From: Gammaproteobacteria bacterium
GTDB taxonomy: Bacteria > Pseudomonadota > Gammaproteobacteria > SZUA-229
NCBI GenBank assembly: GCA_015488295.1
Contig: WFOC01000121.1
Coordinates: 7,580 to 71,579, forward strand
Direction of reading: 5' to 3'
Length of the DNA: 64,000 nucleotides
The notes beneath the pieces were generated by a model. It made no database searches, was not told the origin of the DNA, and saw only the letters and a list, made by a program, of their open reading frames with translations. Positions 7,256 to 56,768 of the stretch are shown here, in pieces (the first letter of the stretch is position 1; each line of letters opens with the position of its first letter). Made by a program: the position numbers and the translations under genes.

Positions 7256-7569
7256 GCCTCTGCTCCTTTTGTACTGAAGGTCATATGTGTCATCAGTCGA
7301 CTGGTTTCGAGTGCATCTTTGGCTGCATCGCTGCTGGCGATAATATTTATTTCGTTACCATTGTCTGATAATTGTTTGGACATGGCTGCCAGCAATTGTA
7401 AGCCGCAGGTGTCTATTTCCTCGATGCCGGCAAGATCAACTTCAAGTGACTGTTCTGAGGAAAAGTTTTCGACCAGATACTCTTTGTATTCGGCTGCGGT
7501 ATAGATGGTTAATTCTCCATCGATACTAAGCAGAGATTTTTCATTTTCCGTGACCATTTTTATTGCCAT
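7252..7569 (-). CDS. STAS-domain protein (anti-sigma-factor-antagonist fold), translationally coupled to cheA
   Basis: 105 aa. Pattern LSIDGELTIYTAAEYKEYL...LEVDLAGIEEIDTCGLQLL matches SpoIIAA/RsbV-type STAS (D-L-x-G-x-x-x-I-D-S/T-x-G-L). Its TGA overlaps the cheA ATG as ATGA (7252-7255). Confidence 0.7.
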   Translation of the reverse strand: MAIKMVTENEKSLLSIDGELTIYTAAEYKEYLVENFSSEQSLEVDLAGIEEIDTCGLQLLAAMSKQLSDNGNEINIIASSDAAKDALETSRLMTHMTFSTKGAEA

Positions 7570-7632
7570 TTTTTTGCCTGCACTTTTATGTTTTGGTTTG
7601 CTGATTTAATCCGCTTGTCTAATGGTGGTTTT

Positions 7633-7995
7633 TTAAGCCAGCTTTGCAACGGCGGAAAGTAATGCGTTAGGTTGAAACGGTTTTACCAGCCAGCCTTTTG
7701 CGCCGGCAGATTTTCCTTCCTGTTTTTTTGCTTCACCTGATTCAGTAGTGAGCATCATGATCGGTGTGAATTTATACTGAGGATGCTGTTTCACTTCTTT
7801 TACCAGGCCAATGCCATCAAGATTAGGCATGTTGACATCGCTTACGATCAGGTGGATTTTCTGACCGGTTAATTTTGAAAGTGCATCTTTGCCATCGCAG
7901 GCTTCGATGACTTCATAACCGGCACCTTTAAGTGCGATGCTTATGACCTGTCGGATTGATGAAGAGTCATCGACTACCATAATTGTTTTTGACAT
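7633..7995 (-). CDS. cheY: CheY-like single-domain response regulator
   Basis: 120 aa. VVDDSSSIR, SDVNMPNLDG, K near C-terminus (WLVKPF). Confidence 0.85.
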   Translation of the reverse strand: MSKTIMVVDDSSSIRQVISIALKGAGYEVIEACDGKDALSKLTGQKIHLIVSDVNMPNLDGIGLVKEVKQHPQYKFTPIMMLTTESGEAKKQEGKSAGAKGWLVKPFQPNALLSAVAKLA

Positions 7996-8008
7996 GTCTT
8001 TATTTCCT

Positions 8009-9271
8009 CTAAAAAAGTGTTAAGTCTGTTTCTGCAGTGTCAGGTCCGTTATGTACCTTTGAATTATTGTGCATATAATGTTGTTCTTCCGTGGTGTAGC
8101 TATCTTTCATTTTTTGTACCTGTTCCTCAAAATTTACTGGTGAAAGTTTTTTGTTGTCCATGCGTTGTGACTGGCTGCTGTTGACGTTTTCGACCATGGT
8201 GTTCATGTCGTTGAGAACTTTGTTGAGAATTTGAGACACGCGATCCTGGAACTGAAAACTCACCAGAACATTTGATATCTGGTCTCTGATGTCTTCACTG
8301 GAAGAACGTAAAGATGAGCTGTCATCCTGCAGGGTTTCGATGGTGTCCTGTAGTCGTGCAAATACGGAATCAATGGTAGTTTTCCCATCATCGACAACAG
8401 TGCGGTTATGGTGGATTGAATCTTCTGCCTGTTTTTGTGTGTCATTAACGGCTTCAACAATGTTGGTGACTTTTTCAATCATCTTCTGACCGGTGTCAGC
8501 CGACATTGATGCCAGTTTTCTTACTTCATCGGCAACCACGGCAAAACCTCGACCATGCTCACCGGCACGAGCGGCTTCGATGGCTGCATTTAATGCCAGC
8601 AGGTTAATCTGGTCAGCAATCTGGCCAACAGCACCCGCCATCTCGTTTAATTCGCTGGTCTGTGCAGACAGCCCCTGAACTTCGCTGAGTAAACGGTCTT
8701 CCAGGCTGAGGGATGATTCAAGTGAATCCACCACTGTTTTCAGTGATTTTTCACTTTCGTTAAACAGGTTGATTATTCCCTGACCATCACCCAGATTGTT
8801 GCTTTTTGACTGTGATGCAGAGATAACATCTTCGAGTTGTGAAGCGAGTGCAGAAAAGCCGCCGGACAATTCATTAATGCTTTGTTCGGTTTGAATATTC
8901 GAGCTTTCAATCTGTCGTGAAAGTATCGGCAGCATCTGCTGGCAAAGGCTTTCCAATGCCCAGGTGTATTCCTGGTATTGCAGTATTTCTTTTGCGTGCT
9001 GTGTGTCTTCATTTTGTCTGGCATTACTGTCCAGCTTATTGATGAAAACAGCAGAGGCGACACCGGCAATTAAAAAGCCTGCGCCAACACTCATAAGAAC
9101 CGTATCACCGGTAAAAAACAATGCAATGGCCGCACCGACACCGAGTAGCACTGTCATGACCTGTGCGACCATGATGCTATCCAGTCCCGAAGTGGAAGGC
9201 ATGTTATCAGCACGACTGGTTACGTGTTCTGAAATGCCATTATCTAATATTGCTTCACCTAAACAACTCAT
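8009..9271 (-). CDS. Methyl-accepting chemotaxis protein, 420 aa, membrane hairpin with no periplasmic sensor or obvious HAMP
   Basis: [34 protein letters not shown] tip. The N-terminus has two adjacent hydrophobic helices. Confidence 0.85.
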
Positions 9272-9289: not shown

Positions 9290-9580
9290 TTATTCAATAA
9301 TTTTTGCGGTTGCATACAACAATGTAAATGCTGTGATAACAACAGCAGCAGATAACATGATGGCAACAATGTCTGGTAGCAGATCTATTTCAATGCCGAA
9401 GAACAATAAGACACTGACAAAGGATAAAACGAATAATGAAAACACAGAGTACAGAACATATAATCCCGCGACTGTATTAAGGTTTAACGATGTCGTATTA
9501 TTGAAAAAAAGGGCATCATCGATGTTTCTTTCATTGAACGCAAAGATGTCTCTGTTCATTCTTTTTTCATTTTTTTTCAT
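9290..9580 (-). CDS. Small membrane protein (96 aa, two predicted TM helices), first gene of the accessory che operon
   Basis: ATG preceded by GAGGAT 6 nt upstream. Hydrophobic stretches GLYVLYSVFSLFVLSFVSVLLFFGI and IVAIMLSAAVVITAFTLLY. I recognise no family. Confidence 0.45.
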   Translation of the reverse strand: MKKNEKRMNRDIFAFNERNIDDALFFNNTTSLNLNTVAGLYVLYSVFSLFVLSFVSVLLFFGIEIDLLPDIVAIMLSAAVVITAFTLLYATAKIIE

Positions 9581-9624
9581 GTTTTATCCTCATTTTTTAG
9601 AACTGTTTATTTGTTCTGCTTTAT

Positions 9625-9651
9625 ATATCGGTATCGCCTTTTGAATCTTTA
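9625..9651 (-). promoter_or_regulatory. Sigma28 (FliA)-type promoter upstream of the accessory che operon
   Basis: Minus-strand reading TAAAGATT-N11-ACCGATAT versus consensus TAAAGTTT-N11-GCCGATAA. It lies about 45 nt upstream of the ORF start at 9580. Confidence 0.6.
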
Positions 9652-9736
9652 AGCTAATCTGGATATATTCTTTAAAATACTGATTTATTAAGCTTTCAGA
9701 AAAATGTCAAAAAATTGTCTGCGCTAGTGCTTTGAA

Positions 9737-9752
9737 TGCAATCTACGTGCCA
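9737..9752 (-). promoter_or_regulatory. Sigma54 (RpoN) -24/-12 promoter, in tandem upstream of the sigma28 promoter
   Basis: Minus-strand reading TGGCACGTAGATTGCA is a perfect TGGCAC-N5-TTGCA. Confidence 0.6.
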
Positions 9753-10019: not shown

Positions 10020-10544
10020 TTAAAAACCTGCAACCATATCGTATTGCTCATCAGTGATGAACTTTTCGCTGTCGAGAATAATAATCAGCTCATCTTCGCG
10101 TGACATAACGCCGGAGATATATTTTGAGCTGCCGCCTTTTGCCAGTTTTGAACTTGCATTGATCAGGGATTCTGGAAGGTCGATAATGTCGGCGACCCGG
10201 TCGACGACAACGGCAACAATATCATCCTTTGATTCCATTACAATCATGCGGGACAGATCGGTGTGTTCTGCCGGTGGTAGATTGATACGACTGCGGCCAT
10301 CAATGACCGAGACTACGTTGCCCCGAATGTTGGTAATGCCGACGATATAATCCGGTGCCCCGGGTACGGGTGAAATATTGTTTATGCGCAGTATCTCGCG
10401 AACATTTTTTACCACGACACCATAAATTTCCTGTCCCAGTTGAAACGTAACCCACCTGATCAGTGGTTCGCAGACCGGCTCATCATCAAATAAGCTGTCT
10501 TCGAGTATCGCGTGTTCCATTTTCATTGCCTCTATTTTATTCAT
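10020..10544 (-). CDS. cheW: CheW coupling protein (main flagellar chemotaxis system)
   Basis: 174 aa. WVTFQLGQEIYGVVVKNVREILR...ISPVPGAPDYIVGITNIRGNVVSVIDGR. Confidence 0.9.
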   Translation of the reverse strand: MNKIEAMKMEHAILEDSLFDDEPVCEPLIRWVTFQLGQEIYGVVVKNVREILRINNISPVPGAPDYIVGITNIRGNVVSVIDGRSRINLPPAEHTDLSRMIVMESKDDIVAVVVDRVADIIDLPESLINASSKLAKGGSSKYISGVMSREDELIIILDSEKFITDEQYDMVAGF

Positions 10545-10549
10545 ATCAT

Positions 10550-11155
10550 CTATTTAGTGCAGTTTTTTAAAAGTTTGATGACACCTTCGATGTCCAGTAA
10601 GACAAGGCCCAGCCGTGCAACGGTGCCGGCCAGCCATATGCGTTCACTTTCGGCATCACGCCAGTGTACATGTTGTTTGGAAATGGTTTGCTGATCGACC
10701 AGGTGGTTGCCGATGAAACCTGTTGTTGAGCCTTTTAGCACGATGATATCAACGGGGTTTTGCTGATGTGCTGTTGCCGAATCATGATCACCAATGCCAT
10801 TCATCAACAGGTACTCAAGGTCGATAACATTGATGGTCTGATCATTGCTGCATGCTGTTCCAACAAAAAGGTTTGCTGTATTCTGTGCCTTGTCGTTTTC
10901 CCTGATCTGCTGCTGCTTTAGTGTTTCACTGATGCTTTCTGCAGGAACAGCTATTTTCAGGCCGGCGATGTTAAAAATCTGGCACTCAAAATCTGCTTTT
11001 TCGTAGGCTGCGTTAAAGTTGACAGCTTGTTGCCGGGTTTCCTGTAATTCGATAACCTGGTCAACCGCCTGCTCATCAATGCCAAGCATATTCGATATGT
11101 AATCTTTTTCGATTTGCTGCGCCAGCTGGCAGGCATTTTGTTCGTTTTTATTCAT
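10550..11155 (-). CDS. parP: CheW-like domain protein in the ParP position (chemotaxis-array partitioning partner of ParC)
   Basis: 201 aa with a C-terminal CheW-like region. Synteny cheA-parC-parP-cheW as in Vibrio and Pseudomonas. 4-nt overlap with parC. Confidence 0.6.
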   Translation of the reverse strand: MNKNEQNACQLAQQIEKDYISNMLGIDEQAVDQVIELQETRQQAVNFNAAYEKADFECQIFNIAGLKIAVPAESISETLKQQQIRENDKAQNTANLFVGTACSNDQTINVIDLEYLLMNGIGDHDSATAHQQNPVDIIVLKGSTTGFIGNHLVDQQTISKQHVHWRDAESERIWLAGTVARLGLVLLDIEGVIKLLKNCTK

Positions 11156-11952
11156 GCGACTTCCCTGTTTTCACTGTTATTGACACGGCTAAGCAGCATT
11201 TGCTCAAGAAGTACTTCGTAAGCTTTCAGGCCATGCGTGTTTTTACTGATGAAGGAAATCGGCTTTCCGGAAAAGCTGGCATCCCTGAATTTGGTGTCGA
11301 CCGGAATGGGTTGTGAGGAAATACAGTCTTTGTATTCATCCTGTAAAATCTTCAGGCTTTTTTGTGAAGCGCGTGTGCGTTGATCATACATAGTGGGCAG
11401 CACGGTGTAACTCAGTTTTTTATGCAGTGACTTTTCAATCATCTTGATGGTGCGCAACATACGATGCAGGCCTTTTATCGCCAGCAGTTCGGTTTGTACC
11501 GGCACCACCAGCTGGTTACAGGCAACCAGTGCGTTGAGCATCAGTAATCCCAGTACCGGCGGGCAGTCGATCAATACATGTGAGTATTGTTGTGAAGCAT
11601 TTTTCAGTACCCGTGACAATATTAATCCCATGCCATTGTTTGCCCCAAAGCGTTTTTCCAGGGTGGCAACAGCGACAGATGAAGGAATGATTGATAGATG
11701 CTCTATTCCGGTTGGGTGCACCACGCTGTCAAGCTCAAGGGTTTTGTTGTTACTTTGTGCGGTGAATAATTCAAACACACCCTGACTGACGGTTTCAGGT
11801 TCCATGCCAAAGTAGCTGCTCATTGAGGCGTGTGGATCAAGATCTATTATCAGGGTTTCTTCATTGCGTCCGGCAAGAATTCCTGCCAGCGTAATTGCAC
11901 TGGTGGTTTTTCCTACCCCGCCCTTCTGATTTGCAAATGCCCAGATATTCAT
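11152..11952 (-). CDS. parC: ParA/MinD-family ATPase in the ParC position (chemotaxis array segregation)
   Basis: 266 aa. Deviant Walker A FANQKGGVGKTTSAITLA. The start codon directly abuts the cheA stop (TAG ATG). Confidence 0.75.
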   Translation of the reverse strand: MNIWAFANQKGGVGKTTSAITLAGILAGRNEETLIIDLDPHASMSSYFGMEPETVSQGVFELFTAQSNNKTLELDSVVHPTGIEHLSIIPSSVAVATLEKRFGANNGMGLILSRVLKNASQQYSHVLIDCPPVLGLLMLNALVACNQLVVPVQTELLAIKGLHRMLRTIKMIEKSLHKKLSYTVLPTMYDQRTRASQKSLKILQDEYKDCISSQPIPVDTKFRDASFSGKPISFISKNTHGLKAYEVLLEQMLLSRVNNSENREVA

Positions 11953-14010
11953 CTAGTGCACCATGTAGTTTGAGGCGTATGCGCCCATCAGTCCGGGCAT
12001 GTCAAGAACCAGTGCAATACCGCCGTCACCGGTGATGGTGGCACCGGAAAACCCCGGTACTTCGTTTAGTATTTTGCCCAGGGGCTTTATTACCACTTCT
12101 TCCTGGCCGATGATCTGATCGACTACCAGACACAGGCGTGTGCCGCCCATTTGTACCACCAGCACTTTCTGTTCATCCTTGGGACCATCAAAGCTGTTTG
12201 AGCGTACCAGCCAGGGGTGTAGATAAAACAGCGGCAGGGTTTGATCCCGGATGCGTATAACATCCTGGCCATCCACTACATTAATCTGCTCGGGTTCCAT
12301 GTTGAATGTTTCATGGACATTGGTCAGCGGCAAGGCAAACTGATGGCGGTCAAGTTTTATCATCAGTGTTGGCAGGATGGCTAAAGTTAAGGGCAGGAAG
12401 ATTGTTATCACCGAGCCTTCACCAAGTTTTGAGTCGATTTCGATACTGCCGCTGAGTTCATTAATACGGGTTTTTACCACGTCCATGCCAACACCACGAC
12501 CTGAGACATCGGAAATTTCTGACTTGGTTGAAAAGCCCGGTGCAAAGATCAGGTTGAAGGCTTCCTTATCAGAAAGTTTGCTGGCTTCATCTTCAGTCAT
12601 CATGCCGCTTTCTGCTGCTTTACGCTTGAAGACTTCTGCGTTCATTCCCTTGCCGTCATCTGACACGGTTAATAATATTTGATCACCTTCCTGTTTTGCA
12701 CTCAGTGTGACGGTGCCCTGACGTGGCTTACCGGAGGCAAATCGTTCATCCGGTGATTCGATGCCGTGATCGGCAGAGTTGCGCACAAGATGGATTAAGG
12801 GGTCGGCCAGTGCTTCGACCAGACTTTTGTCGAGATCGGTGTTTTCGCCGATCAGTTCAAGATTAATATCTTTATTGAGTTTTCTGGCGAGATCACGAAT
12901 AACACGAGGAAAGCGGCTGAAAACTTTTTTGATCGGCTGCATGCGTGTTTTCATTACCGATGACTGCAGATCAGAAGTGACCAGTTCAAGCGTGGTTATC
13001 GCTTCTTCGATGTGTTCGTGAGTTATTGTTTGTTTGAGCATGGACAGGCGGTTTTTTACCAGCACCAGTTCGCCGACCAGATTCATAATGTCATCAAGTC
13101 GTTCGGTGTCGACACGCACACTGGTGTCTTTTTGTGCCAGTGGTTTTTTAGCGGCTGTTTTTTCTTTTGTGTCTGGCTTTGATTCCTGTGGTTTTTCTTC
13201 GGCAACAGGTTTTACGGCTTCTGTTTTTTCAACCGCTGCTTTTTCAGTTTCCACAGCTTCATTTGTTTTGCTTTCTGGTGCCTTGCTTCCTGGTCCCCTG
13301 TTTTTGCCGTGCATCTGGTCGAGCATGGCTTCAAACTCATCATCAGTGATTAAGCCATCATCAGTGTCTGTATCAGCTTCAGTTTTTTCAGCTTTATTAT
13401 CGGCTGCAGAGTGTTTACCTTTGCCATGTAATTCATCGAGCAGGTTTTCAAATTCATCATCGGTAATCAGATCACTTTGTTCTGTATCGCTTTCTTTTTT
13501 CGTAGAATTTTCGCTCAGAGCCTGCTGACGCATTTGTTCAAATTCATCATCCATGCTCAGTGCTGTAACGGTTTCTGTGGCGGTTTCTGCAACGGCCGGT
13601 TCTTCCGCTTTGTCCTGTTCGGCTTTGTTACCACCAAGATAGCTATCGAGTCGGGCTAGTAATTCCGGGCTGGCGGACTCCTGCTCTTCGTTTTCGCGGA
13701 TACTTTCAAACATGTCGCCAACGATATCGAGTACCTGGAACATGACATCGATGAGGTCGGCATCAACACTGATTTTTCTATTGCGCAACAGATCAAAGAC
13801 ATCTTCAGCACGATGACAAACTTCGACCATGGGTGTCAGTTTCATAAAACCGGCACCGCCTTTTATGGTGTGAAAAGCACGAAATATGGCGTTCAGTAAA
13901 TCGTCATCCTCCGGGTTGCTTTCCAGTTCGGTTAGCTGGTCGTTGAGCAAGTCGTATAACTCGCCTGCTTCGACCAGAAAATCCTGCATTATTTCGTCAT
14001 CTATACTCAT
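11953..14010 (-). CDS. cheA: CheA histidine kinase (main system); no folded P2, acidic repeat linker instead
   Basis: 685 aa. Hpt FRAFHTIKGGAGFM, HLVRNSADHGIE, DDGKGMN, GRGVGMDVV, P5 CheW-like C-terminus. Confidence 0.95.
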   Translation of the reverse strand: MSIDDEIMQDFLVEAGELYDLLNDQLTELESNPEDDDLLNAIFRAFHTIKGGAGFMKLTPMVEVCHRAEDVFDLLRNRKISVDADLIDVMFQVLDIVGDMFESIRENEEQESASPELLARLDSYLGGNKAEQDKAEEPAVAETATETVTALSMDDEFEQMRQQALSENSTKKESDTEQSDLITDDEFENLLDELHGKGKHSAADNKAEKTEADTDTDDGLITDDEFEAMLDQMHGKNRGPGSKAPESKTNEAVETEKAAVEKTEAVKPVAEEKPQESKPDTKEKTAAKKPLAQKDTSVRVDTERLDDIMNLVGELVLVKNRLSMLKQTITHEHIEEAITTLELVTSDLQSSVMKTRMQPIKKVFSRFPRVIRDLARKLNKDINLELIGENTDLDKSLVEALADPLIHLVRNSADHGIESPDERFASGKPRQGTVTLSAKQEGDQILLTVSDDGKGMNAEVFKRKAAESGMMTEDEASKLSDKEAFNLIFAPGFSTKSEISDVSGRGVGMDVVKTRINELSGSIEIDSKLGEGSVITIFLPLTLAILPTLMIKLDRHQFALPLTNVHETFNMEPEQINVVDGQDVIRIRDQTLPLFYLHPWLVRSNSFDGPKDEQKVLVVQMGGTRLCLVVDQIIGQEEVVIKPLGKILNEVPGFSGATITGDGGIALVLDMPGLMGAYASNYMVH

Positions 14011-15228: not shown

Positions 15229-15978
15229 TTATGCATTGTCATCGACCCATTCAGTCATTCGTGCGCGCAGGCGAAGCAATGCCTGGCCGTGTATCTGGCA
15301 CACGCGCCCTTCGGTGATGCCTAGTACTTCACCTATTTCACGCAGGTTTAACTCTTCGTCGTAATACAGTGCCATCACCATTTTTTCGCGTTCAGGTAAG
15401 CTTTTAATTTTGTCTGCCAGTCCGCATTTAAAACTTTCTTCCTGCAGGTGGTCATAAGGGTTGAGCCGTTCGCTGCTTTCGTATTCATCCTGGCAACCGC
15501 CGACGGAAACGATGTCTTCATAACTGAGCAGTTTGCAACCGGCAGCGTCTTTTACCATGCTGTAATATTCATCCATGCTGAGGCCGAGCTGTTCAGCAAT
15601 CTCGTCGTCTTTTGCATCTCTTCCCTGCTCGCTTTCGATGCTGCGGATGGCTTCGGACAGTTGTCTTGATTTTTTATAGACCGAACGGGGGGTCCAGTCG
15701 CAACGTCGCACTTCGTCGATCATTGCTCCCTGGATACGGATGCGGGCATAGGTTTCAAAACTTGCACCTTTGGACATGTCGTAGCCTTTCAGGGCTTCGA
15801 ATAATCCGATCATGCCGGTTTGTATAATGTCTTCGAGCTGTACGTTGGCGGGTAATCGCGTAATCATGTGATAAGCGATGCGCTTGACGAAAGGCGCATG
15901 TTCGGTCATCAGTGCATCATAATTGGGCGTATTATCAGAAATCGAACCTACGTCAGCATAACTTGATACCAGAGCCAT
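15229..15978 (-). CDS. fliA: Flagellar sigma factor FliA (sigma28)
   Basis: 249 aa. Sigma70-family regions 2-4 (DIIQTGMIGLFEALKGYD, ELNLREIGEVLGITEGRVCQIHGQAL). Synteny flhF-flhG-fliA-cheY. Confidence 0.95.
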   Translation of the reverse strand: MALVSSYADVGSISDNTPNYDALMTEHAPFVKRIAYHMITRLPANVQLEDIIQTGMIGLFEALKGYDMSKGASFETYARIRIQGAMIDEVRRCDWTPRSVYKKSRQLSEAIRSIESEQGRDAKDDEIAEQLGLSMDEYYSMVKDAAGCKLLSYEDIVSVGGCQDEYESSERLNPYDHLQEESFKCGLADKIKSLPEREKMVMALYYDEELNLREIGEVLGITEGRVCQIHGQALLRLRARMTEWVDDNA

Positions 15979-25944: not shown

Positions 25945-25960
25945 AGCAAATGTCGTGCCA
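25945..25960 (-). promoter_or_regulatory. Sigma54 promoter of the fliL-fliR-flhB operon
   Basis: Minus-strand reading TGGCACGACATTTGCT. Confidence 0.6.
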
Positions 25961-26090
25961 ATCATTTATTTGCGATAAATTACTATGAAATACAGTGTGT
26001 TACATGATGTTTTTATGGGGCGATGGGAATTTGACAGACGATTTGAAAGCGGTGTCAGAAATTTGTCCTGTGACTAAAGTCAGGGAAATT

Positions 26091-33525: not shown

Positions 33526-34872
33526 TCAGGCCGGTATTGCAACACCGGCATCTCGCATTTTTGCCAGTTTGTAACGCAGCGTGCGTGAGCTGATGCCCAG
33601 TCGTTCGGCAACTTCCTTGCGGCTGTTTCTGGCTTTTAATGCAGAGATAATCAGATCCTGTTCACGGGTTTTAAGGTCAGTGCTGAGATCTGGCTCAAAT
33701 GTTTCCTGTTTGTTTTTAATCGGTGCATGCAGTTTGAATTCCTGCGTGCTGTGCTCGATGTGTATGTCTTTATCTTCAATGATGTTGCCTGATTTAAGAA
33801 TCAGGGCACGTTGTACTACGTTATCCAGCTCACGCACATTGCCGGGCCAGGCGTGGGTTTTTAACAGCATATTTGCTGATTCAGAAAAATATACCGGCTC
33901 GCTGATGTTGGTGTGCAGGTTCAATATTTTGTTTGCCAGTGGCAGTATGTCGTCGCTGCGGTCACGTAATGGTGGAATGCATAATGGAAAAACGTTCAGG
34001 CGGTAGAACAGATCTTCACGAAACTGCCCTTCGGCAACCGCCTGATAGATATTACGGTTGGTGGTTGACAGAATTCTGACATCGAGTGCGATGGCTTTTC
34101 TGCCACCCAGGCGTTCGACTTCACGCTCCTGCAGGACGCGTAATAATTTTGCCTGCAGGGCAAAGTCCATTTCTGTTATCTCGTCGAGTAACAAAGTGCC
34201 GCCCTGCGCCTGTTCGAATTTTCCTGCCTTGGATTTATAAGCGCCGGTGAATGCGCCTTTTTCGTAGCCGAATAATTCAGATTCAAGCATGTTCTCCGGA
34301 ATGGCGGCACAGTTGATAGCGACGAACGGGCCGGATGAACGGGATGAGTTTTCGTGGATGAAGCGTGAGATCACTTCTTTGCCGACACCTGATTCCCCGC
34401 TTATCATAACGCTGGCTTCGGTTAGTGCAACGCGTTTTGCGACTTCGGCGAGTTGCACGCTGTGTTGATCAACAGCAATGAATCCATCGTTGCGCGAGCT
34501 GGTTATTGGTGAGATAAAACGGCCAACCATTTCGATCAGCGTGTCTGATTCAAAAGGTTTGGTCAGGTAATCTGCAGCACCGTCGTGTAGTGTCTGCACG
34601 GCTTTTTCAATGGTGCCATAGGCCGTCATCAGAATGAACGGGATTGCCGGGAAGTTTTCTTTGCAATTATTCAACAGTTCATAGCCACCCATAGGATGCA
34701 TCTGCACGTCACTTAGCAGCAAGGCGATGTCATTATTGCTGTGTAATATTTCCAGCGCTTCCTCGCCATGACTGGCAGTGGCTACCCTGTAACCTTCAAG
34801 TCGCAGTGTTTCTGATAATACCTCTCGTAGAGACTGATCATCTTCGACGATTAAAACTGTATTCTGCTTCAT
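33526..34872 (-). CDS. flrC: Sigma54-dependent response regulator FlrC/FleR (REC, AAA+, HTH)
   Basis: 448 aa. REC (LIVEDDQSLR, SDVQMHPMGG), AAA+ (GESGVGKE, GAFTGA, ELFG), C-terminal Fis-type HTH. Confidence 0.9.
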   Translation of the reverse strand: MKQNTVLIVEDDQSLREVLSETLRLEGYRVATASHGEEALEILHSNNDIALLLSDVQMHPMGGYELLNNCKENFPAIPFILMTAYGTIEKAVQTLHDGAADYLTKPFESDTLIEMVGRFISPITSSRNDGFIAVDQHSVQLAEVAKRVALTEASVMISGESGVGKEVISRFIHENSSRSSGPFVAINCAAIPENMLESELFGYEKGAFTGAYKSKAGKFEQAQGGTLLLDEITEMDFALQAKLLRVLQEREVERLGGRKAIALDVRILSTTNRNIYQAVAEGQFREDLFYRLNVFPLCIPPLRDRSDDILPLANKILNLHTNISEPVYFSESANMLLKTHAWPGNVRELDNVVQRALILKSGNIIEDKDIHIEHSTQEFKLHAPIKNKQETFEPDLSTDLKTREQDLIISALKARNSRKEVAERLGISSRTLRYKLAKMRDAGVAIPA

Positions 34873-36095
34873 AATTCAACCTCTTGACCGTCTGTTACTC
34901 TCAGATTTGTTTGTGCGGTTAATGTGCTGGGCAACATGCCGTTTTCTTCAGCACATGGGAACTGGATGTTAAAATTGCTGCCCTCTCCGTATTTTGAGTC
35001 AATACGCAGCTCACCGTTATAACGGTTGATGGTGGCGTTGACCACGGCAAGTCCCAGACCGGTGCCGTTGGTACGGGTGGTGAAAAATGGTTCCAGTATT
35101 TTTTTCAGGGTTTGTTCTTTCATGCCACAGCCGTTGTCTTTAATGTTTATTTCAAATTTATTTTTGCTGTTTAAAAAAGCAGATATTTCGATACGGGTTC
35201 TGTTTTCATGGTTTTTTTCACAGGCGGCGATAGCGTTGTCGACAATGTTCTGGATAGCGCTTAACAGTGCGTCCTGATTTGCTCTAACAGCAATGTTGTT
35301 TAAATTGTCATTCAGACGCAGTGAAATTTCCTGTGATTTATAACCAGGCTCGAGCAGGCTTTTTAGCTGTATAAAGAATCTGTCAACGTGCATGTACTCT
35401 GCATCGGATACATCTCCTCGGGCAAAAATCAGCATGTCATCCACCATACGTTGCAGGTAGCGCAATCTTTCTTTGGCGTTTTCGGTGAACTGTTGTCGCC
35501 GGTCTTCGTTGTTGGCCGGATGACTGGAATTGGATATGTTGAGCAGAGCTGATGACAGTGGCGTGCGTATTTGATGTGCCAGGCTGGCAATCATTTCACC
35601 CAGTGAGCTCAAGCGTTGCTGGCGATTAAGCTTTTCGTGAAGGGCGTGTGTTTCACTGACATCCGAGATCAGCATGATTTTTTCAGAAGCCTGGTTTAAC
35701 TGGCATGCTGACAGATTGACCCAGCGACCATCTTTTAAGCGCAGTTCGTCACCATCGTTTATAAAGGCATCAGCAGCAATTTTTTCCCAGTGAGTGGTTT
35801 CGCTGCCGAGCATTTGCTGGGCAATACAGTTGCTCTGTGTGATGTGGCCGCTTGAATCAAGAACCACCACGCCTGCGGGCAGTGCGTCGAATAAACTTTC
35901 CAGTCTTTTTGCCAGCTTTTCTTTTTCCGCCAGTTCGACAAGTCGTTTGCTTCGCTCTTTCGCCAGTTCTTTTGACAGACGAGTAACCTGCTGTTCCAGG
36001 TCGCCGTATGAATCGGCAAGTTTTTCAGAAAACTGATTAAACAGATGAAAAGCATTTTCAAGTTGTTCGCCGGCTTCATTAATCTGACTGTACAT
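34869..36095 (-). CDS. flrB: Sensor histidine kinase FlrB/FleS (cytoplasmic PAS, HisKA, HATPase)
   Basis: 408 aa. H box [13 protein letters not shown] box [20 protein letters not shown]. 4-nt overlap with flrC. Confidence 0.9.
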
Positions 36096-36133
36096 GTTTC
36101 ACTCTCGTTATATTATTCTTCTGCAATCATCAA

Positions 36134-36149
36134 AGCAAAGAGCGTGCCA
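36134..36149 (-). promoter_or_regulatory. Sigma54 promoter of flrBC
   Basis: Minus-strand reading TGGCACGCTCTTTGCT, about 40 nt upstream of the flrB ATG. Confidence 0.6.
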
Positions 36150-36197
36150 CTTTTTTAAATCTATATTTATCATTAACTTAGGTGTGGTGCATGAGTG

Positions 36198-36217
36198 CCT
36201 GACAAGATTTTGTCAGG
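36198..36217. promoter_or_regulatory. Inverted repeat CCTGACAA-gatt-TTGTCAGG, candidate enhancer/operator about 84 bp upstream of the flrB sigma54 start
   Basis: Perfect 8-bp arms. The related direct repeat AGTGCCTG(A/T)CA occurs at 36194 and 36227. Confidence 0.35.
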
Positions 36218-36284
36218 TGATTTAAAAGTGCCTGTCAGCATTATGTCGCCACATAACTGGCGCATAAAATATGCAAATTCTGTT

Positions 36285-36311
36285 TAAGAAAAAGCCTGTT
36301 GCTGCCGATAC
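36285..36311 (+). promoter_or_regulatory. Sigma28-type promoter candidate for the 162-aa orphan
   Basis: Plus-strand TAAGAAAA-N11-GCCGATAC. The -10 matches 7/8 and the -35 is weak. It ends 28 nt before the ATG at 36340. Confidence 0.45.
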
Positions 36312-36339
36312 CTTGCATATAGATAACGGGATTTAAACT

Positions 36340-36828
36340 ATGTCTTTATATTCGATTGATAAATTGATTAATGAAACGCGTCGCCTGGCGGCTGAATTCA
36401 AGCGCACCACAGGTACTATGTTGCCTGTTTCGGGCGAGATAGCACGCTATGATGTTTCTCACCATCTTGATCTGGCATTAAGCAATGATCATACCTGTGG
36501 TTATGATGCTATCGGCAGCGGCGTACGTGAAGGCCTGCGGGTGCAGATAAAGAGCCGCGTTATTGGTGATGCAGTTAAATCCGGCCACCGGCTTGGGCAG
36601 TTAAATACCAATGGTAACTGGGACATTGTGATCCTGTCTTTGATGGATGATGAATTTGAACCGATAGAGATGTATCAGATTAGTCGTGAAAGAATCATTG
36701 ATGTTCTGAATGCGACCAGCAAGAAAAACCGTACTATGTCGGTTGCCAAATTCAAGATTATCAGTGACCTGGTCTGGTCGAAACAGGATGGTGTTTTAAC
36801 TCACCAGGAATACAAAAAAGTTTTATAA
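36340..36828 (+). CDS. Hypothetical 162-aa cytoplasmic protein with a PD-(D/E)xK-like motif arrangement; the only plus-strand gene inside the flagellar regulon
   Basis: Clean ORF. E33 ... GYD56 ... VQ69-I-K71 spacing resembles a restriction-endonuclease-fold core. No TM or signal peptide. The family assignment was not verified. Confidence 0.55.
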   Translation: MSLYSIDKLINETRRLAAEFKRTTGTMLPVSGEIARYDVSHHLDLALSNDHTCGYDAIGSGVREGLRVQIKSRVIGDAVKSGHRLGQLNTNGNWDIVILSLMDDEFEPIEMYQISRERIIDVLNATSKKNRTMSVAKFKIISDLVWSKQDGVLTHQEYKKVL

Positions 36829-36980
36829 CCCCTCTCCTGCCGTACCGGCAAGCAACGATGCGTTGCATGGCAATCATGTCTGTGATTGATATTTTTTATT
36901 GAGATTTTTGAAAACCGGAATGTTTTAAAGCAGTCGGTGTTAATAGCGGGTGCCGGATCTGGCAGGTTTGTGGGCTTATG

Positions 36981-37039
36981 CCTCTGTTCCTGTCAAGCAA
37001 CTGAAAACAGATGACATGCAGAACAGAGGTGTTTTTTCC
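36981..37039 (+). terminator. Stem-loop plus T-tract (possibly bidirectional, lying between the orphan and fliT)
   Basis: CCTCTGTTC ... GAACAGAGG (9-bp stem with inner TGTCA/TGACA pairing) followed by TGTTTTTTCC. An A-tract sits on the other side. Confidence 0.45.
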
Positions 37040-37074
37040 TGGGTGTCTACCCGATGGGTGTATTTGCCAGTGCT

Positions 37075-37386
37075 TTATTGAAAGGCATTTTGCTGGTAGG
37101 AGTTGACTGCATGTCGCCCCTTTTTGAGGGATGCGATGTCATCGCCTGTGCTGTTTCTGGTTTTGAGTGTGATCGCTTCCAGTTTTTTATTGATGGCGAT
37201 AATTTTTCTTATTTTGTCGTCCATGTCCTGCACATTGTTTTGTTTGCTTGTGCCCGAGAACAGTTTTTCCAGCAGTGCACTGCGCTGTGCTTCAATATCA
37301 AAAACTTTTTTCCAGTTACCGGCTTCTGCATCTATCAGCATTTTTTTACTGTATTCGATGGCTTCATGTAATTGTTTAGCACTCAT
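37075..37386 (-). CDS. fliT: FliT-like flagellar chaperone
   Basis: 103 aa helical protein directly after fliS. The pattern AEAGNWKKVFDIEAQRSALLEKL is typical of FliT. Confidence 0.55.
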   Translation of the reverse strand: MSAKQLHEAIEYSKKMLIDAEAGNWKKVFDIEAQRSALLEKLFSGTSKQNNVQDMDDKIRKIIAINKKLEAITLKTRNSTGDDIASLKKGRHAVNSYQQNAFQ

Positions 37387-40073: not shown

Positions 40074-41210
40074 TTACCGAAGTAAACTTAATACGTTCTG
40101 TGGTACCTGGTTTGCCTGAGCCAGCATTGCAGTACCTGCCTGTTGCAGAATCTGGTTACGGGACAGGCTTGCTGTTTCAGCAGCAAAGTCAGCATCACGG
40201 ATTCGACCACGAGCCGCACTGGTATTTTCAGAGTTAATCGCCAGGTTTGAAACAACACTTTCGAAACGTGTTTGAATTGCACCAAGATCAGCACGTGCAG
40301 TATTAACTGCTTCCAGAGCTGCATCCATAGTGCCAATTGCTGTGTTTGCACCAGCGACTGTAGAAAGATCAAGCGTTGAAAAGCCAGTTGTCGTTGCTGT
40401 TGCTGTTGTCGCAGCTGTTAAACCAGTTGTTGTGGTATCTGCTGAAAGGCCAGCAAAGGCAACGGTTATCGCATTGGTTGATGTTAATGAGACCGTTGTT
40501 GAAGTATCATTTGTCGCGTAAACACCTGTCTGGTCGGAAACCGAGTTAATCGCATCACGTATGCTTCCAGCACGTTCAACCGCTGAAGTATCTGCCGCAA
40601 TTCCGCCTACTGAAACACCATTGATTGTAAGGTCACCAGCTGTAATAGCAGTAAATGAGGTAGCCGCAACGCCGGTTACACCAGCAGATGTTGTAGTACC
40701 CAGAGCGGTTGACTGTGCATTAACGATACTGTTTACAGAAATGGTTTCACCGCTGTTAGCGCCAACCTGAAAGGTCTGGTTGGTAAAACTACCATCGAGC
40801 AGCTTAACGCCGTTAAAGTTAGTTTGTGTTGCAACACGGTCGATTTCACTTTTCAGCTGTTGTGCCTCTGCATCCAGTGCAGCACGGTCTGAAGCGCTGT
40901 TGGTGGCGTTGGCAGACTGTACAGCCAGCTCACGAATACGTTGCAGTGCACTACTGACACTGTCCAGTGAACCCTCAGCTGTCTGAGCCAGTGATACACC
41001 GTCATTTGCGTTACGCATAGCCACGTTCATACCACGGATCTGGGTAGTCATTCTTTCAGAAATAGCCAGGCCAGCCGCGTCATCTTTTGCGCTGTTGATA
41101 CGCAGACCAGATGACAAACGTTGCAGTGACGTGGAAAGATCCATTGATGAAGAGTTCAGGTTACGCTGAGCATTCAGTGAGGACACATTGGTATTGATTG
41201 TTAAAGCCAT
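40074..41210 (-). CDS. fliC: Flagellin
   Basis: 378 aa. [19 protein letters not shown]...[19 protein letters not shown] and C-terminal [24 protein letters not shown]. The central region is Thr/Ser/Ala-rich. Confidence 0.95.
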
Positions 41211-41366: not shown

Positions 41367-42920
41367 CTATCGTGCGTTTATGACCTTTGTTGTGCCATCG
41401 GAAACACCCGGCAAGGTCAAACCCTTTATCAGATCATGGGCATACTTTCTGTAGTTTCTCCAGTGCCTGGCGGGTGACTTATATATATTGTGTTTGCGCT
41501 GTATGCTGTTTTTTGCATCGGTTTTCCGGGCGCTGGCGAAATTCTCGATATATTCCGGCTGCCATGCCAGGTCAACAAAATCGAACAGCTGACGGCTGAT
41601 TTTATCGGGTGCCTTTACCATCTCATCATAATTTACAGTGTGAATATCGATGGGTAATACCTTGTTCCAGTGTGCCATCAACCGCTCATATTGCTGGTAA
41701 TACAGAGCGATGTTTTTCTGGTCATAGGAATAGCGGTTATCGACGGAAAAATTCTTGAAATAATTCGACAGGCAGATATCCAGCGGATTAGCAATGCAGT
41801 GTATGATTCTGGCTTTTGGAAACAGCAGTGAAATCAAGCCAAGATGCAAAAAGTTTGCTGGTTTTCTATCTGTGATACGTGCCGGGATTTTGCAATCATT
41901 ATTCAGCGCCATGGCGTTAACCTGATTAAGATAGCTTTTTGAAAAATCAGATAGCAGTTCTTCATTGAGATCTTCCAGAGACACCTGCCCAGCCGGACTG
42001 CCTTCTGCTGTAAGGTCTAACTTCTGCGCGATTTGTTCAATCAGGTCAAGCTCACCTGCTGCATAGATGTCATTGTGATTTGCCAGCAAGCGGTCGACAG
42101 AGCTGATGCCAGACTGTGGCATTCCGACAATAAAGACAGGCTGGGATGAGTTGTTTAAAACAAAAGCTTTTTGCTGCTCAAAAAAATCTGGTGAGAAAGT
42201 CCGGATGATTCCTGAAATATAGTCAACATGTCTGTCAGCATCAAAAGCGGCAACTTTCGAGATGTTGGCCACGGCATAATTAGCAAAGGCCTCATCATAT
42301 TTTTCCGAAACATCATAGACCGCGCCCAGAGAAAAATAAAAGCTGCAGCGAACTTCCAGCGGCAGGTTCGGCTTCAACAGATAGTTTTCAACTATGTTGA
42401 TATTTTCAGTGGTGACTGAGCGAGCATCCAGTTTAACCATGCCCTGAAAATTTCTGGGATCAGCCGGGTTGAGCTCAAAGGCAGAGCGATAATGATTCAG
42501 TGCCGCATCTGTATCATTGAGCTGCATATACAGGCGCGCTAACTCACCATGGACTTCGCCATTGTTTTTGTCAGTGTCCAGGATATAACTGTAATGCTGT
42601 ATTGCTTTTTTGTAATCAGACAGCCTGGTATAAACCATGGCAAGGTTTTTATTTACTGTTGCATGATTTGGCTGAGTAGTATGGGCGGCATTAAAAAATT
42701 CTGAGGCAAGTACCAGCATGCCGGCATTGAGGGCGATGACACCCAGTCCGTTCAGGGCATGGATGTTTTCCGGTGCCAGCTCCAGAACTTTCTGGTACAG
42801 AAAATTTGCCTGCTCAAGCTGATTCTTTTCCTGATAATCGAGTGCATCTGCAAGTAATTTTTTTATGGCATTTTTAGTGTTGTTATTTGCGTGCTGTGTT
42901 TTCTTTTTGGCTGTATTCAT
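41367..42920 (-). CDS. TPR-repeat protein fused to a sulfotransferase-family domain
   Basis: 517 aa. N-terminal TPR-like repeats (about aa 25-160). C-terminal FIVGMPQSGISS (5-prime-PSB-like loop, aa 263-274) and IIHCIANPLDICLSNY (3-prime-PB-like, aa 372-387). Only 33 bp after flgL. Confidence 0.7.
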   Translation of the reverse strand: MNTAKKKTQHANNNTKNAIKKLLADALDYQEKNQLEQANFLYQKVLELAPENIHALNGLGVIALNAGMLVLASEFFNAAHTTQPNHATVNKNLAMVYTRLSDYKKAIQHYSYILDTDKNNGEVHGELARLYMQLNDTDAALNHYRSAFELNPADPRNFQGMVKLDARSVTTENINIVENYLLKPNLPLEVRCSFYFSLGAVYDVSEKYDEAFANYAVANISKVAAFDADRHVDYISGIIRTFSPDFFEQQKAFVLNNSSQPVFIVGMPQSGISSVDRLLANHNDIYAAGELDLIEQIAQKLDLTAEGSPAGQVSLEDLNEELLSDFSKSYLNQVNAMALNNDCKIPARITDRKPANFLHLGLISLLFPKARIIHCIANPLDICLSNYFKNFSVDNRYSYDQKNIALYYQQYERLMAHWNKVLPIDIHTVNYDEMVKAPDKISRQLFDFVDLAWQPEYIENFASARKTDAKNSIQRKHNIYKSPARHWRNYRKYAHDLIKGLTLPGVSDGTTKVINAR

Positions 42921-42953: not shown

Positions 42954-43856
42954 TTAAAGGTAATTAAACAATGATAATCCCTGTACTTTTACGAAGGACT
43001 GTTGCGATGCCTGCAGGGCAAGTAATTGTCTTTCAAAACGGCTGACAGCTTCGGCGTAATCCAGATCTTCCAGGCTGGAGCGATTTTCCTGAAGTAGCAG
43101 GGAAAAACTGTCGTTGGCGCTTTTCTGGTTTTCAATGGTGTTTAATCTGGCACCGACGGAGGCACGGGTATCAAGAACAGAATCCAGTGCTGAATCAATA
43201 CGTGCCAGTGTTGTTGTTGAAGGTGTATTAGATTCAAGATCGATGACAAAATCATAGAGCGCACTAAACATGCTGTCGACACCGCCGGCACCATCATCTA
43301 CTTTCATGAAAACATCATTGCCTGAGTCACCGATAGCAACCTGTCGTCGGGCACCAATCTGTAAATTACGTTGACCCTGGTCTCCTTCATAGGTGAAGTT
43401 GCCTGCGCCATCATCGGTAAAAGGAATGGTGTCGGTTTTAAAGCCGGCAAACAGGTATTCACCGGTGGCATCCGTGCTGTTTGCCAGTTGCACCAGAGCT
43501 TCAATACTTTCCCGTACCTCGAAGGCAATGCTCTGTCGGTCGGATGCATTGAGTGTGTCGTTGTTTGCCTGCACAGAAAGTTCGCGGGTGCGCTGTAATA
43601 TGTCACCGACTTCGGTGAGCACGGCCTCCTCCATGTACAGCCGGGAATTGGCGAAATCGGCATTCCGCTGATACTGGTCGTTGGTTTCAATCACATTGTT
43701 CAGATTCAGAATGCGCGTTGCCGCCGCAGGATCATCACTGGGTGACAGATTGTTTTTACCAACTGAAAGCTGCATCTGTGTTTTAGCCAGGTCTGTTTGC
43801 TGGCTCTGCATGGCAGTGACAGATTGCTGAAATATTTGTGATGTTGAGAGTCGCAT
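42954..43856 (-). CDS. flgL: Hook-filament junction protein FlgL
   Basis: 300 aa with flagellin-like N- and C-termini. Synteny after flgK. Confidence 0.9.
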   Translation of the reverse strand: MRLSTSQIFQQSVTAMQSQQTDLAKTQMQLSVGKNNLSPSDDPAAATRILNLNNVIETNDQYQRNADFANSRLYMEEAVLTEVGDILQRTRELSVQANNDTLNASDRQSIAFEVRESIEALVQLANSTDATGEYLFAGFKTDTIPFTDDGAGNFTYEGDQGQRNLQIGARRQVAIGDSGNDVFMKVDDGAGGVDSMFSALYDFVIDLESNTPSTTTLARIDSALDSVLDTRASVGARLNTIENQKSANDSFSLLLQENRSSLEDLDYAEAVSRFERQLLALQASQQSFVKVQGLSLFNYL

Positions 43857-55674: not shown

Positions 55675-56634
55675 TCAGCTTTTTCTTATGCGGCTGCCTT
55701 TCATGCCGTATTTCTCACCGGCTTTGCGTATAAATGATTCTGCTTCGCCTCGGTCAAAAAATCCGCTAACGCTTAATCTGTAGACACGCTCGCCCCTGAC
55801 GATAGCTTGCTGCATATTCGGTACCAGCCCTTCGGCATATAGTTGTTCTATGATTTTTTCAGCTTTGCTTTTATTGGTGAGCGATGCCAGCATTACGGTT
55901 AAGCCGTTACTGGCGGCTGTTTTTATGACCGGGCTGTTTTCGGGTTTGATTGTTTTCAGCTTGCTTTTTACAGCCTGTAATTCAGTTTTTAGCGATAAAA
56001 TCTCATTTTTAAAGACATTGACATCATCCTGTAAAGCAGCATTGTTTTTTGTTTTTGCTGCGGCTTTGTTTTGTGCCAGGGCGACATATTTCTTGTCCAG
56101 TGCTGAGTAATCCTTTTTTATAGCTTGTAGTTCATTTTGTAAAGATAACAGTGTTGCTTTGATTTTTGTTGTGCCATCGGATGACAGGCTCTTTTGTAAA
56201 TTGACACTTTCCTGTATTTTCTCCTCAATGCTCTCATCATAAATGCTTAATGAGCTTTCAATGTCATTGCTTTGAGCATCCAGTTTGAATAATGTTGATG
56301 CCAGTAATGCAGCTGAAATTAATAACAGCAGTAACTGCAGCCAGATACCAGGAGTGATTTCCTTTTTTGTTTGAGCTGTGTTTGATGAGCGGCTCTGTGG
56401 CTTTTTCTGTGCCCCGTCAGATGAAATTGATACGGTGTCATCACCGTATAATGTATCGCTCGGCTGATTGCAGCTTGCCGCATTATAGTTTTCCACACCT
56501 TGAGGAGGCGTATTTTGTGTGCTTCTGGTTTTTGCTGATTCCGGATAGGCAGGGCCGTTATCCTGTATCTGTGATAGCACACTGCTCAGGTTGTGGTTGG
56601 CGATGGAATTATAATTGTCTGCTGTCATGTTCAT
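55675..56634 (-). CDS. Bitopic membrane protein: disordered N-terminus, TM, periplasmic coiled coil, C-terminal SPOR (peptidoglycan-binding) domain
   Basis: The C-terminus GLTVMLASLTNKSKAEKIIEQLYAEGL...GERVYRLSVSGFFDRGEAESFIRKA fits the SPOR pattern. Start placed at the ATG at 56634 (AGGAG 8 nt upstream); the track start is 56658. 11 bp before flgA. Confidence 0.6.
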   Translation of the reverse strand: MNMTADNYNSIANHNLSSVLSQIQDNGPAYPESAKTRSTQNTPPQGVENYNAASCNQPSDTLYGDDTVSISSDGAQKKPQSRSSNTAQTKKEITPGIWLQLLLLLISAALLASTLFKLDAQSNDIESSLSIYDESIEEKIQESVNLQKSLSSDGTTKIKATLLSLQNELQAIKKDYSALDKKYVALAQNKAAAKTKNNAALQDDVNVFKNEILSLKTELQAVKSKLKTIKPENSPVIKTAASNGLTVMLASLTNKSKAEKIIEQLYAEGLVPNMQQAIVRGERVYRLSVSGFFDRGEAESFIRKAGEKYGMKGSRIRKS

Positions 56635-56752
56635 TAATTTATCTCCTATAAGCTGCATCGTTGGACTTTGTTTTACTCTGCTGATTGAGTAACGGCCTGC
56701 CTGGCCGGTTTGCGTCTTATAAAATCATTCTGGTAATATTGCGATTAGATAA

Positions 56753-56768
56753 AGCAACAACTGTGCCA
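56753..56768 (-). promoter_or_regulatory. Sigma54 promoter of the SPOR gene-flgA unit
   Basis: Minus-strand reading TGGCACAGTTGTTGCT. Confidence 0.55.

Follow-up and report, generated by a model that had tools for sequence, protein, structure and literature searches.

A BisI-like nuclease-fold protein with an altered active site between fliT and flrB in a flagellar gene cluster of uncultured Gammaproteobacteria

We analysed a 64,000-nucleotide stretch of the genome of a Gammaproteobacteria bacterium (assembly GCA_015488295.1, contig WFOC01000121.1; hereafter the window), which carries a complete polar-flagellum and chemotaxis cluster, with fliA, flhF, flhG, cheYZA, flgM, flgN and flgA included. 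The subject of this study is the 979-bp interval between fliT and flrB, which contains one sizeable open reading frame (ORF) encoding a protein of 162 amino acids (aa) (Table 1). In Pseudomonas and Vibrio, the usual occupant of this position, between fliT and fleS/flrB, is the gene for FleQ/FlrA. An initial annotation of this DNA had noted that no fleQ is present here, which is indeed the case, and its coordinates for flrB, flrC, fliT, the interval and the ORF all proved right. It had also described the ORF as the only plus-strand gene in about 47 kb. In agreement with this, all other plus-strand ORFs of 90 aa or more that lie between about 1.7 and 58.3 kb overlap minus-strand ORFs longer than themselves, and the latter are flagellar or chemotaxis genes where checked (most of them, not all, were checked). 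Likewise, FlrC is the sole AAA+ sigma-54 activator in the 64 kb, as had been stated: a six-frame scan for GAFTGA, ELFG and Walker A motifs revealed no other, and tblastn with FlrC against the window returned receiver-domain paralogues only. The six TGGCAC-N5-TTGC promoters counted earlier correspond to six exact sites, all on the minus strand. The DNA of the window is 99.8–100% identical to scaffolds of several metagenomes and of the metagenome-assembled genome (MAG) GCA_026995915.1 (99.8% for a 105.9-kb scaffold).

The 162-aa protein has a PD-(D/E)xK nuclease fold and is a member of the DUF6998 / BisI family, which comprises type IIM restriction endonucleases. It had been called an orphan, which it is not: a search of 5.8 billion proteins yielded 355 homologues at E ≤ 1e-3, the best 120 of which are 66–93% identical and come from marine and subsurface metagenomes, and an exhaustive hidden Markov model (HMM) search for the family gave 721 clusters at 50% identity. 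The protein matches the PADLOC profile PDLC03209 mREase_II (type II methyl-directed restriction endonuclease) over residues 8-148 with E 1.8e-24 and 84.6 bits, and a profile of its clade, compared with PDB sequences, detects Eco15I (E 2.4e-6) and NhoI (E 3.9e-3). The Pfam family DUF6998 (PF22522) covers positions 4-132 of 136 with 20.1 bits and E 6e-4, which is below its gathering threshold of 27, although some close homologues carry precomputed PF22522 matches. With hhalign, the alignment to canonical DUF6998 members extends over 149 columns with 100% probability and E 1.9e-42. Although the Pfam score is sub-threshold, the profile-profile match is unambiguous and, by these alignments, the protein is a divergent branch of the DUF6998 superfamily. 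NCBIfam has no model for this family, and a literature search returned nothing on DUF6998 and nothing linking BisI-like proteins to flagella.

The structure prediction leads to the same relatives. The AlphaFold2 (AF2) model of the protein (predicted local distance difference test score 75.7; predicted template-modelling score 0.72) has helices at residues 6-24 and 31-42 followed by strands. The 12 best PDB matches of this model in Foldseek are all NhoI or Eco15I structures, with probability 1.0 and a template-modelling (TM) score of ~0.5, and the next ones are PvuII (E 3e-3, TM ~0.42-0.45) and I-Ssp6803I. An endonuclease-like fold, which the initial annotation had proposed from a motif, is thus found by modelling as well.

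The active site is altered, however. In Eco15I, the substitutions E49A, D69A, Q79A and K81A each abolish activity (PMC11347163), and the motif of the BisI family is D-X(10-12)-QxK (PMC4926085, PMC11347163). These four Eco15I residues align to positions 36, 56, 69 and 71 of the 162-aa protein. We determined residue frequencies in the flagellar clade, i.e., in the best 120 of the 355 homologues. The aspartate at position 56 and the lysine at position 71 are each present in 120/120 proteins and are invariant in canonical DUF6998 members. Position 69, where the family has its metal-binding Gln, is Q in 96 proteins, L in 23 and R in one, compared to Q in 56/60 canonical members. At position 36, where all 60 canonical members have the catalytic Glu, the clade has R in 119 proteins and K in the remaining one. 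Hence the full catalytic set of the family (the Glu of helix alpha-1, the Asp and the Gln-x-Lys) is not found in the clade, which keeps D56 and K71 and replaces E36 by R. In the wider non-canonical branch, position 36 is occupied by R, K, N, Q, V, A and other residues, and D56 and E33 also lapse in some members.

The initial annotation had recognised a PD-(D/E)xK core composed of E33, G54-Y55-D56 and V68-Q69-I70-K71. All of these residues are at the positions given, and the catalytic assignment of D56 and Q69-x-K71 stands together with the fold; that of E33 does not, since the catalytic Glu of the family aligns to R36. E33 was examined both as the catalytic Glu and as a compensating change. 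The former was ruled out by the two PDB alignments (Eco15I and NhoI) and the canonical DUF6998 profile, all of which place the Glu at position 36, and the latter by the canonical members, in which E33 is conserved just as it is in 120/120 proteins of the flagellar clade.

By analogy with NhoI and Eco15I, the predicted layout of the protein is a dimerisation helix (6-24), an invariant linker (25-32), helix alpha-1 (31-42, with E33 and R36), D56, Q69-I-K71 and a loop (75-95, with R84, G86 and Q87). Residues 1-47 are nearly invariant among proteins that are overall only ~65% identical, and the loop 75-95 keeps R84, G86 and Q87. In the NhoI and Eco15I structures, the alpha-0 helix forms the dimer, the linker joining alpha-0 to alpha-1 touches the minor groove, and beta-3 and beta-4 come close to the backbone and the major groove (PMC11347163). 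Residues 1-47 and 75-95 would be the counterparts of this dimer helix, DNA-contacting linker and loop. Because the catalytic Glu is replaced while the predicted dimer and DNA-contact elements are nearly invariant, the simplest reading is that the protein is dimeric, binds DNA and may no longer cleave it in the canonical manner.

A sigma-28 (FliA)-type promoter lies upstream of the gene, where the initial annotation had located it. In the window, TAAR-N15-GCCGATA is matched exactly by this box and by one other site, and 12 matches were found when up to one mismatch was allowed, against 1.6 expected. Several of these boxes are upstream of flaG, cheV, flgM and a methyl-accepting chemotaxis protein (MCP) gene, and the promoters of flagellin and flaG are built in the same way as the box of the 162-aa gene. 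Across the clade, 12 of 23 loci have a sigma-28 box of the TAAA-N15-GCCGATAA type located at -47 to -67 from the ATG, compared to 0.05 expected from shuffles, and in these upstream regions (12/23) its position has been kept while the DNA around it diverged. Control of the gene by FliA is a well-supported prediction for the lineage of the window, but it does not appear to be universal in the clade.

The gene order was compared among 28 related loci, including 20 from a scan of one genome per species, which all belong to MAGs of uncultured Thiotrichaceae or Gammaproteobacteria. The gene is also carried by the assemblies NVWZ01, CALODJ01 and ERZ25073254. In 28/28 loci, the nuclease-fold gene is on the opposite strand and adjoins flrB, or flrC where flrB has been lost. 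The gap to flrB or flrC is usually 230-500 bp, and fliT is directly downstream in most loci and otherwise follows after one or a few inserted genes. The initial annotation had envisaged relatives with fleQ in this slot and without the ORF; fleQ was seen at the slot in 0 of the 28 loci. It could have been hidden in loci L011 and L012, where a long gap separates flrB from the ORF; this was ruled out, as both gaps contain toxin-antitoxin genes. The identity to the window protein ranges from 56 to 93% across the loci, tracks that of FlrC, FliF and FliE, and exceeds that of FliT and mostly that of FlrB. The ratio of non-synonymous to synonymous substitution rates (dN/dS) is 0.10 against a 93%-identical relative, and the G+C content of the gene is 0.438 compared with 0.41-0.48 for its neighbours. 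No repeats, integrase or insertion sequence (IS) element were noticed in the flanks, where no dedicated repeat search was run. The nuclease-fold gene is therefore real, under strong purifying selection, chromosomal, vertically inherited and fixed in the flagellar cluster of a clade of uncultured Thiotrichaceae-like bacteria. The order fliT-fleQ-fleS of Pseudomonas and Vibrio fails for this whole clade.

Two local variants of the arrangement should be mentioned. One sub-lineage (L001-L006 and L009; e.g., L001 8257..11415) has lost flrB. Its flrC keeps the phospho-acceptor Asp and the sigma-54 promoter, with an odd LSD-repeat insertion in L001, and a 258-aa spermidine-synthase-like gene of class I methyltransferase fold (NCBIfam PRK04457, E 9e-41, below the cutoff) follows the nuclease-fold gene on the same strand. 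In L011 (7850..10000) and L012 (8335..10000), toxin-antitoxin pairs lie between flrB and the nuclease-fold gene, and an HDOD-like protein then follows. Judging by eye from the ORF translations, these pairs are of ParE/RelE-like, HepT/MNT-like and PIN-like types.

Beyond the flagellar clade, the family occurs in several settings. Plasmids of Pseudomonas, rhizobia and Burkholderiales carry canonical DUF6998 members, which have E36 and Q69 and are surrounded there by IS and toxin-antitoxin genes; none were found in phages, and many canonical members are fused to extra domains. We built a crude neighbour-joining (NJ) tree with 100 bootstraps, in which the non-canonical branch is recovered in 100/100 replicates and the flagellar clade in 99/100. 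The deeper nodes are weak (53-63/100): the R/K36 group, made of the flagellar clade and clusters 1, 3 and 5 and comprising about 50 clusters at 50% identity, reaches 63/100, and the two fliT-adjacent groups are joined in 53/100. Cluster 4, the basal grade of the chromosomal branch, has mostly E36, the order mrcB-TPR-X-dinG-like helicase-tsaB and a TGTACAAT extended -10. Cluster 1 has R36 and L69, the order X-LemA-GIDE-helicase and a CAAAGTTT-N11-TCCGATAT box. Clade 5 is further degenerate, is located beside tsaB and shows no sigma-28 box. Cluster 3, with R36 and Q69, lies between an MSHA-type pilus cluster and fliT-fliS-fliD. In loci L030 (8001..11177), L031 (8001..11216) and L032 (8001..11942), the orthologue is preceded by mrcB and a TPR protein and immediately followed by a DinG/YoaA-like helicase and tsaB, and this mrcB-TPR-orthologue-helicase-tsaB array of other Gammaproteobacteria looks like a conserved, undescribed operon. 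The likely history leads from a mobile nuclease to a chromosomal helicase-linked gene, which lost its catalytic Glu, came to the fliT border and acquired the sigma-28 promoter in the lineage of the window.

The 162-aa gene shares its upstream region with flrB. The sigma-54 promoter in this region drives flrB-flrC and probably fliE onward, and 22/22 loci carry a GGCA(C/T)-N5-TTGC box upstream of flrB or flrC. The conserved element TGTCAGCATTATGTCG is 102-104 bp from the sigma-54 box in most loci, i.e., at a fixed spacing of ~102 bp. The palindrome next to it is the sole exact match of TGACA-N6-TGTCA in the window, where this pattern is not enriched, and is likely the second half of a tandem activator-binding site. 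Motifs of the GACA-N6-TGAC / TGACA-N6-TGTCA kind are thus at -97 and -64 of the flrB promoter (36200..36248), and related ones are at -106 of the promoter at 25946 (26050..26065 region) and at +34 of the promoter at 9738 (9700 region). They represent a candidate common enhancer motif for an FlrC-type activator, and the region upstream of flrBC resembles the tandem enhancers at which AAA+ activators ordinarily act. The sigma-54 promoter of flrBC and the conserved upstream element imply that an AAA+ activator is still needed, which could be FlrC, through autoregulation, or an unlinked FleQ. Rfam and a simple scan for terminators and sigma-70 promoters gave nothing of note in the fliT-flrB interval.

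Table 1. Genes and regulatory sites at and around the fliT-flrB interval (window coordinates)
Feature	Position	Strand	Remarks
fliT-flrB interval	36096..37074		
162-aa protein, DUF6998 / BisI fold, Arg for catalytic Glu	36340..36828	+	family profiles, AF2 model, alignments
Sigma-28 (FliA)-type promoter TAAGAAAA-N11-GCCGATAC	36285..36311	+	GCCGATA -10, TAAG -35; ends 28 nt before the ATG
flrB (fleS-type sensor histidine kinase)	34869..36095	-	HisKA and HATPase_c; divergent from the 162-aa ORF
flrC (fleR-type response regulator, sigma-54 activator)	33526..34872	-	REC, Sigma54_activat, HTH_8; phospho-acceptor Asp intact
fliT	37075..37386	-	convergent with the 162-aa ORF; fliS also flanks
Sigma-54 promoter TGGCAC-GCTCT-TTGC	36135..36149	-	~40 nt upstream of flrB
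Enhancer-like element TGTCAGCATTATGTCG = TG(A/T)CAGCATTATGTC(G/A)	36233..36248		top conserved intergenic k-mer, 15/20 loci
Perfect palindrome TGACA-AGATTT-TGTCA	36200..36215		33 bp from the TGTCAGCATTATGTCG element
Exact TGGCAC-N5-TTGC sites	9738, 25946, 27483, 36135, 52624, 56754	-	six in the window
fliA	15229..15978	-	Sigma70_r2, r3 and r4 domains; adjoins flhG and flhF

Given these observations, we propose, with a probability of roughly 0.5, that this real and conserved gene encodes an old, vertically inherited nuclease-fold protein that is driven by FliA and serves as a non-cleaving, DNA-binding dimer in the late flagellar regulon. FliA would transcribe the gene along with the late flagellar genes, and the product would bind DNA as a dimer, without canonical cutting, and couple some DNA-level event to completion of the flagellum. 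The most plausible candidates for this event are transcriptional feedback and recognition of a site or modification in the DNA, perhaps in the flrBC control region. The identity of the gene and its evolutionary behaviour are well supported, and support for the mechanism is moderate. One of the two possibilities raised by the initial annotation, recruitment of a FliA-controlled nuclease-fold protein into the flagellar regulon, agrees with these data, including a sigma-28 box conserved at a fixed distance. If the non-cleaving DNA-binding role is true, the protein would illustrate cleanly how a defence nuclease can be put to use in cellular regulation, and it would be an unrecognised member of the flagellar regulon.

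Several points weigh against this proposal. All members have E33, D56 and K71 and 80% of them retain Q69, so that a non-canonical nuclease activity is conceivable, and the placement of R36 relative to D56 and K71 is taken from alignment. The FliA dependence is predicted from a promoter motif; 11 of the 23 clade loci have no sigma-28 box, and the deeper branches L024 and L025 show a TATACT-type -10. A specific action at the flrBC promoter is weakened by the toxin-antitoxin genes that part the ORF from flrB in L011 and L012, and by the second fliT-adjacent subclade, which has no flrBC next door. Moreover, orthologues outside the clade are located beside a DinG-like helicase and tsaB and have sigma-70-like promoters, which indicates that the ancestral role was not flagellar and that the present location may be partly historical.

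This last point introduces the main rival, in which the flagellar location is incidental to a general role in DNA metabolism: the protein would be an ancestral partner of a DinG/YoaA-like helicase, with some sigma-28 co-expression and no part in motility. Clusters 4, 1 and 5 adjoin a DinG-like helicase and/or tsaB in housekeeping settings, the 4-70 nt gaps beside helicase and tsaB suggest an operon, the flagellar clade is nested inside the helicase-linked chromosomal branch of the NJ tree, and position 36 is already variable (E, N, Q, R, K) in helicase-linked orthologues. Yet the position on the fliT/flrB side is kept down to 56% identity and recurs beside fliT in a second subclade, the distance of the sigma-28 box is fixed while the flanking DNA diverged, and R36 and the N-terminal 47 residues are far tighter in the flagellar clade than in the helicase-linked relatives; we regard this account as a serious competitor that is nevertheless rather unlikely. 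An active modification-dependent restriction endonuclease, made together with the flagellum and guarding motile cells, for instance against flagellotropic phages with modified DNA, seems less likely still. The protein clearly belongs to the BisI / type IIM superfamily, whose enzymes are solitary and have no methyltransferase partner (PMC4926085), it has D56, Q69 and K71, and the invariant E33 is one helical turn from position 36; nevertheless, the Glu essential in Eco15I is Arg in 119/120 members and the essential Gln is Leu in 23/120. Strict vertical inheritance and very slow evolution are also unlike defence genes, canonical relatives being on plasmids among IS and toxin-antitoxin genes, and no phage-borne relatives were found.

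It is also conceivable, but improbable, that the nuclease-derived protein acts as a top-level or feedback regulator that binds the palindromic elements before flrB in a clade without FleQ. The gene is divergent from the sigma-54-driven flrBC operon in every clade locus, palindromic elements are conserved in the shared intergenic region, the dimeric fold is of a kind that reads short palindromes, and there is no fleQ within the 64-kb cluster. Against this, the fixed 102-bp spacing between element and sigma-54 box fits the site of an AAA+ activator and not a new factor, a sigma-28-driven gene is made late and so cannot start the cascade, and toxin-antitoxin insertions between the ORF and flrB are tolerated. 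An elaboration of this idea, which we offer as a long shot, is that this marine clade has no FleQ and that a restriction-enzyme-derived, non-cleaving dimer, produced under a FliA promoter, recognises a palindromic or methylated site at flrBC and feeds back on the FlrBC/sigma-54 tier; such feedback through the flrBC site, if true, would amount to a flagellar regulator of a new class, with a defence nuclease as its origin. The other possibility of the initial annotation is that a small segment was recently inserted in this strain when fleQ was lost or relocated; all that speaks for it is the lack of fleQ at this site and the orientation of the ORF on the opposite strand. The same arrangement in 28 loci, which represent at least 20 genomes at species level and never have fleQ at this site, the divergence in step with flagellar neighbours, the dN/dS of 0.10 and the matching G+C without compositional anomaly point to a long-standing position and leave this explanation virtually no room.

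Other features of the window, outside the fliT-flrB interval, are also worth recording. A TPR-plus-sulfotransferase protein (41367..42920, minus strand) is encoded between a flagellin gene (40074..41210) and flgL (42954..43856); this order recurs in L001, L004 and L007 and suggests that a flagellin glycan or the filament is sulfated. A 327-aa SPOR-domain protein adjoining flgA (55675..56768, minus strand), preceded by an exact sigma-54 box (56754..56768), may be a peptidoglycan-binding member of the flagellar regulon. The window holds two CheA-containing chemotaxis modules (5144..9271 and 10020..14010, both on the minus strand), one with a STAS-domain protein and its own MCPs, the other with a ParA-like ATPase and CheW pairs beside cheYZ-fliA. 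Upstream of a 96-aa ORF with no Pfam match (9290..9752, minus strand) lie an exact sigma-54 box (9738..9752) and, in addition, a sigma-28-like box (9626..9651); a GACAATTTTTTGAC motif is located downstream of the sigma-54 box.

When compared to known systems, the 162-aa protein shares with FleQ/FlrA its position in the gene order only. It has neither an AAA+/sigma-54 interaction domain (GAFTGA) nor HTH_8, consists of 162 instead of ~490 aa, and is encoded on the opposite strand under a sigma-28-type promoter; it is neither a substitute for FleQ nor similar to it. Its next-best structural matches are the PvuII-type homodimeric type IIP endonucleases, and PvuII is the nearest canonical relative of NhoI and Eco15I (PMC11347163). 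Unlike these enzymes, the 162-aa protein has an altered active site and no partner methyltransferase, and there is no detectable sequence similarity between them.

The closest comparison is with the BisI family (BisI, NhoI and the N-terminal domain of Eco15I; PDB 8q5m, 8q5n, 8q5o, 8rpx). Both have a similar size (~160-175 aa), match in profile and fold, and follow the same order of alpha-0 dimer helix, linker, alpha-1 and D...QxK on beta-2/beta-3, with D56, Q69 and K71 corresponding to D69, Q79 and K81 of Eco15I. They differ in that the catalytic Glu (E49 in Eco15I, E50 in NhoI) is Arg here and the Gln is not universal in the clade, and in that no alignment of the C-terminal (H/R)(V/I/T/M) methyl-sensing motif to the 162-aa protein was obtained. 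The DNA cleaved by the BisI family is GCNGC with 2-4 5-methylcytosines. The predicted isoelectric point is 7.9, whereas the N-terminal domain of Eco15I is acidic (PMC11347163). BisI enzymes are encoded by solitary, horizontally acquired and sporadic genes without a methyltransferase partner (PMC4926085), which serve in defence; the 162-aa gene is vertically inherited within a flagellar cluster, with a sigma-28-type promoter, and its fixed synteny in 28 loci and its divergence together with flagellar genes are not those of a sporadic, horizontally acquired gene. Canonical DUF6998 proteins share with it the motifs TG.xLxxxGE, GYDA, QIKxR and WD, but keep E36 and Q69 and are often plasmid-borne or equipped with extra domains.

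Inactive proteins of PD-(D/E)xK fold that are reused for binding form a general class, and the 162-aa protein resembles them in that the fold is kept, a metal-binding acidic residue is lost and surface elements are under strong selection. Our literature search found no described example of a sigma-28-controlled member of a flagellar cluster among them. Restriction-enzyme folds normally occur in mobile, fast-evolving defence genes. This branch instead consists of a slowly evolving chromosomal gene in which the catalytic Glu has given way to a practically invariant Arg and which, in one clade, appears to be wired to the late flagellar sigma factor.

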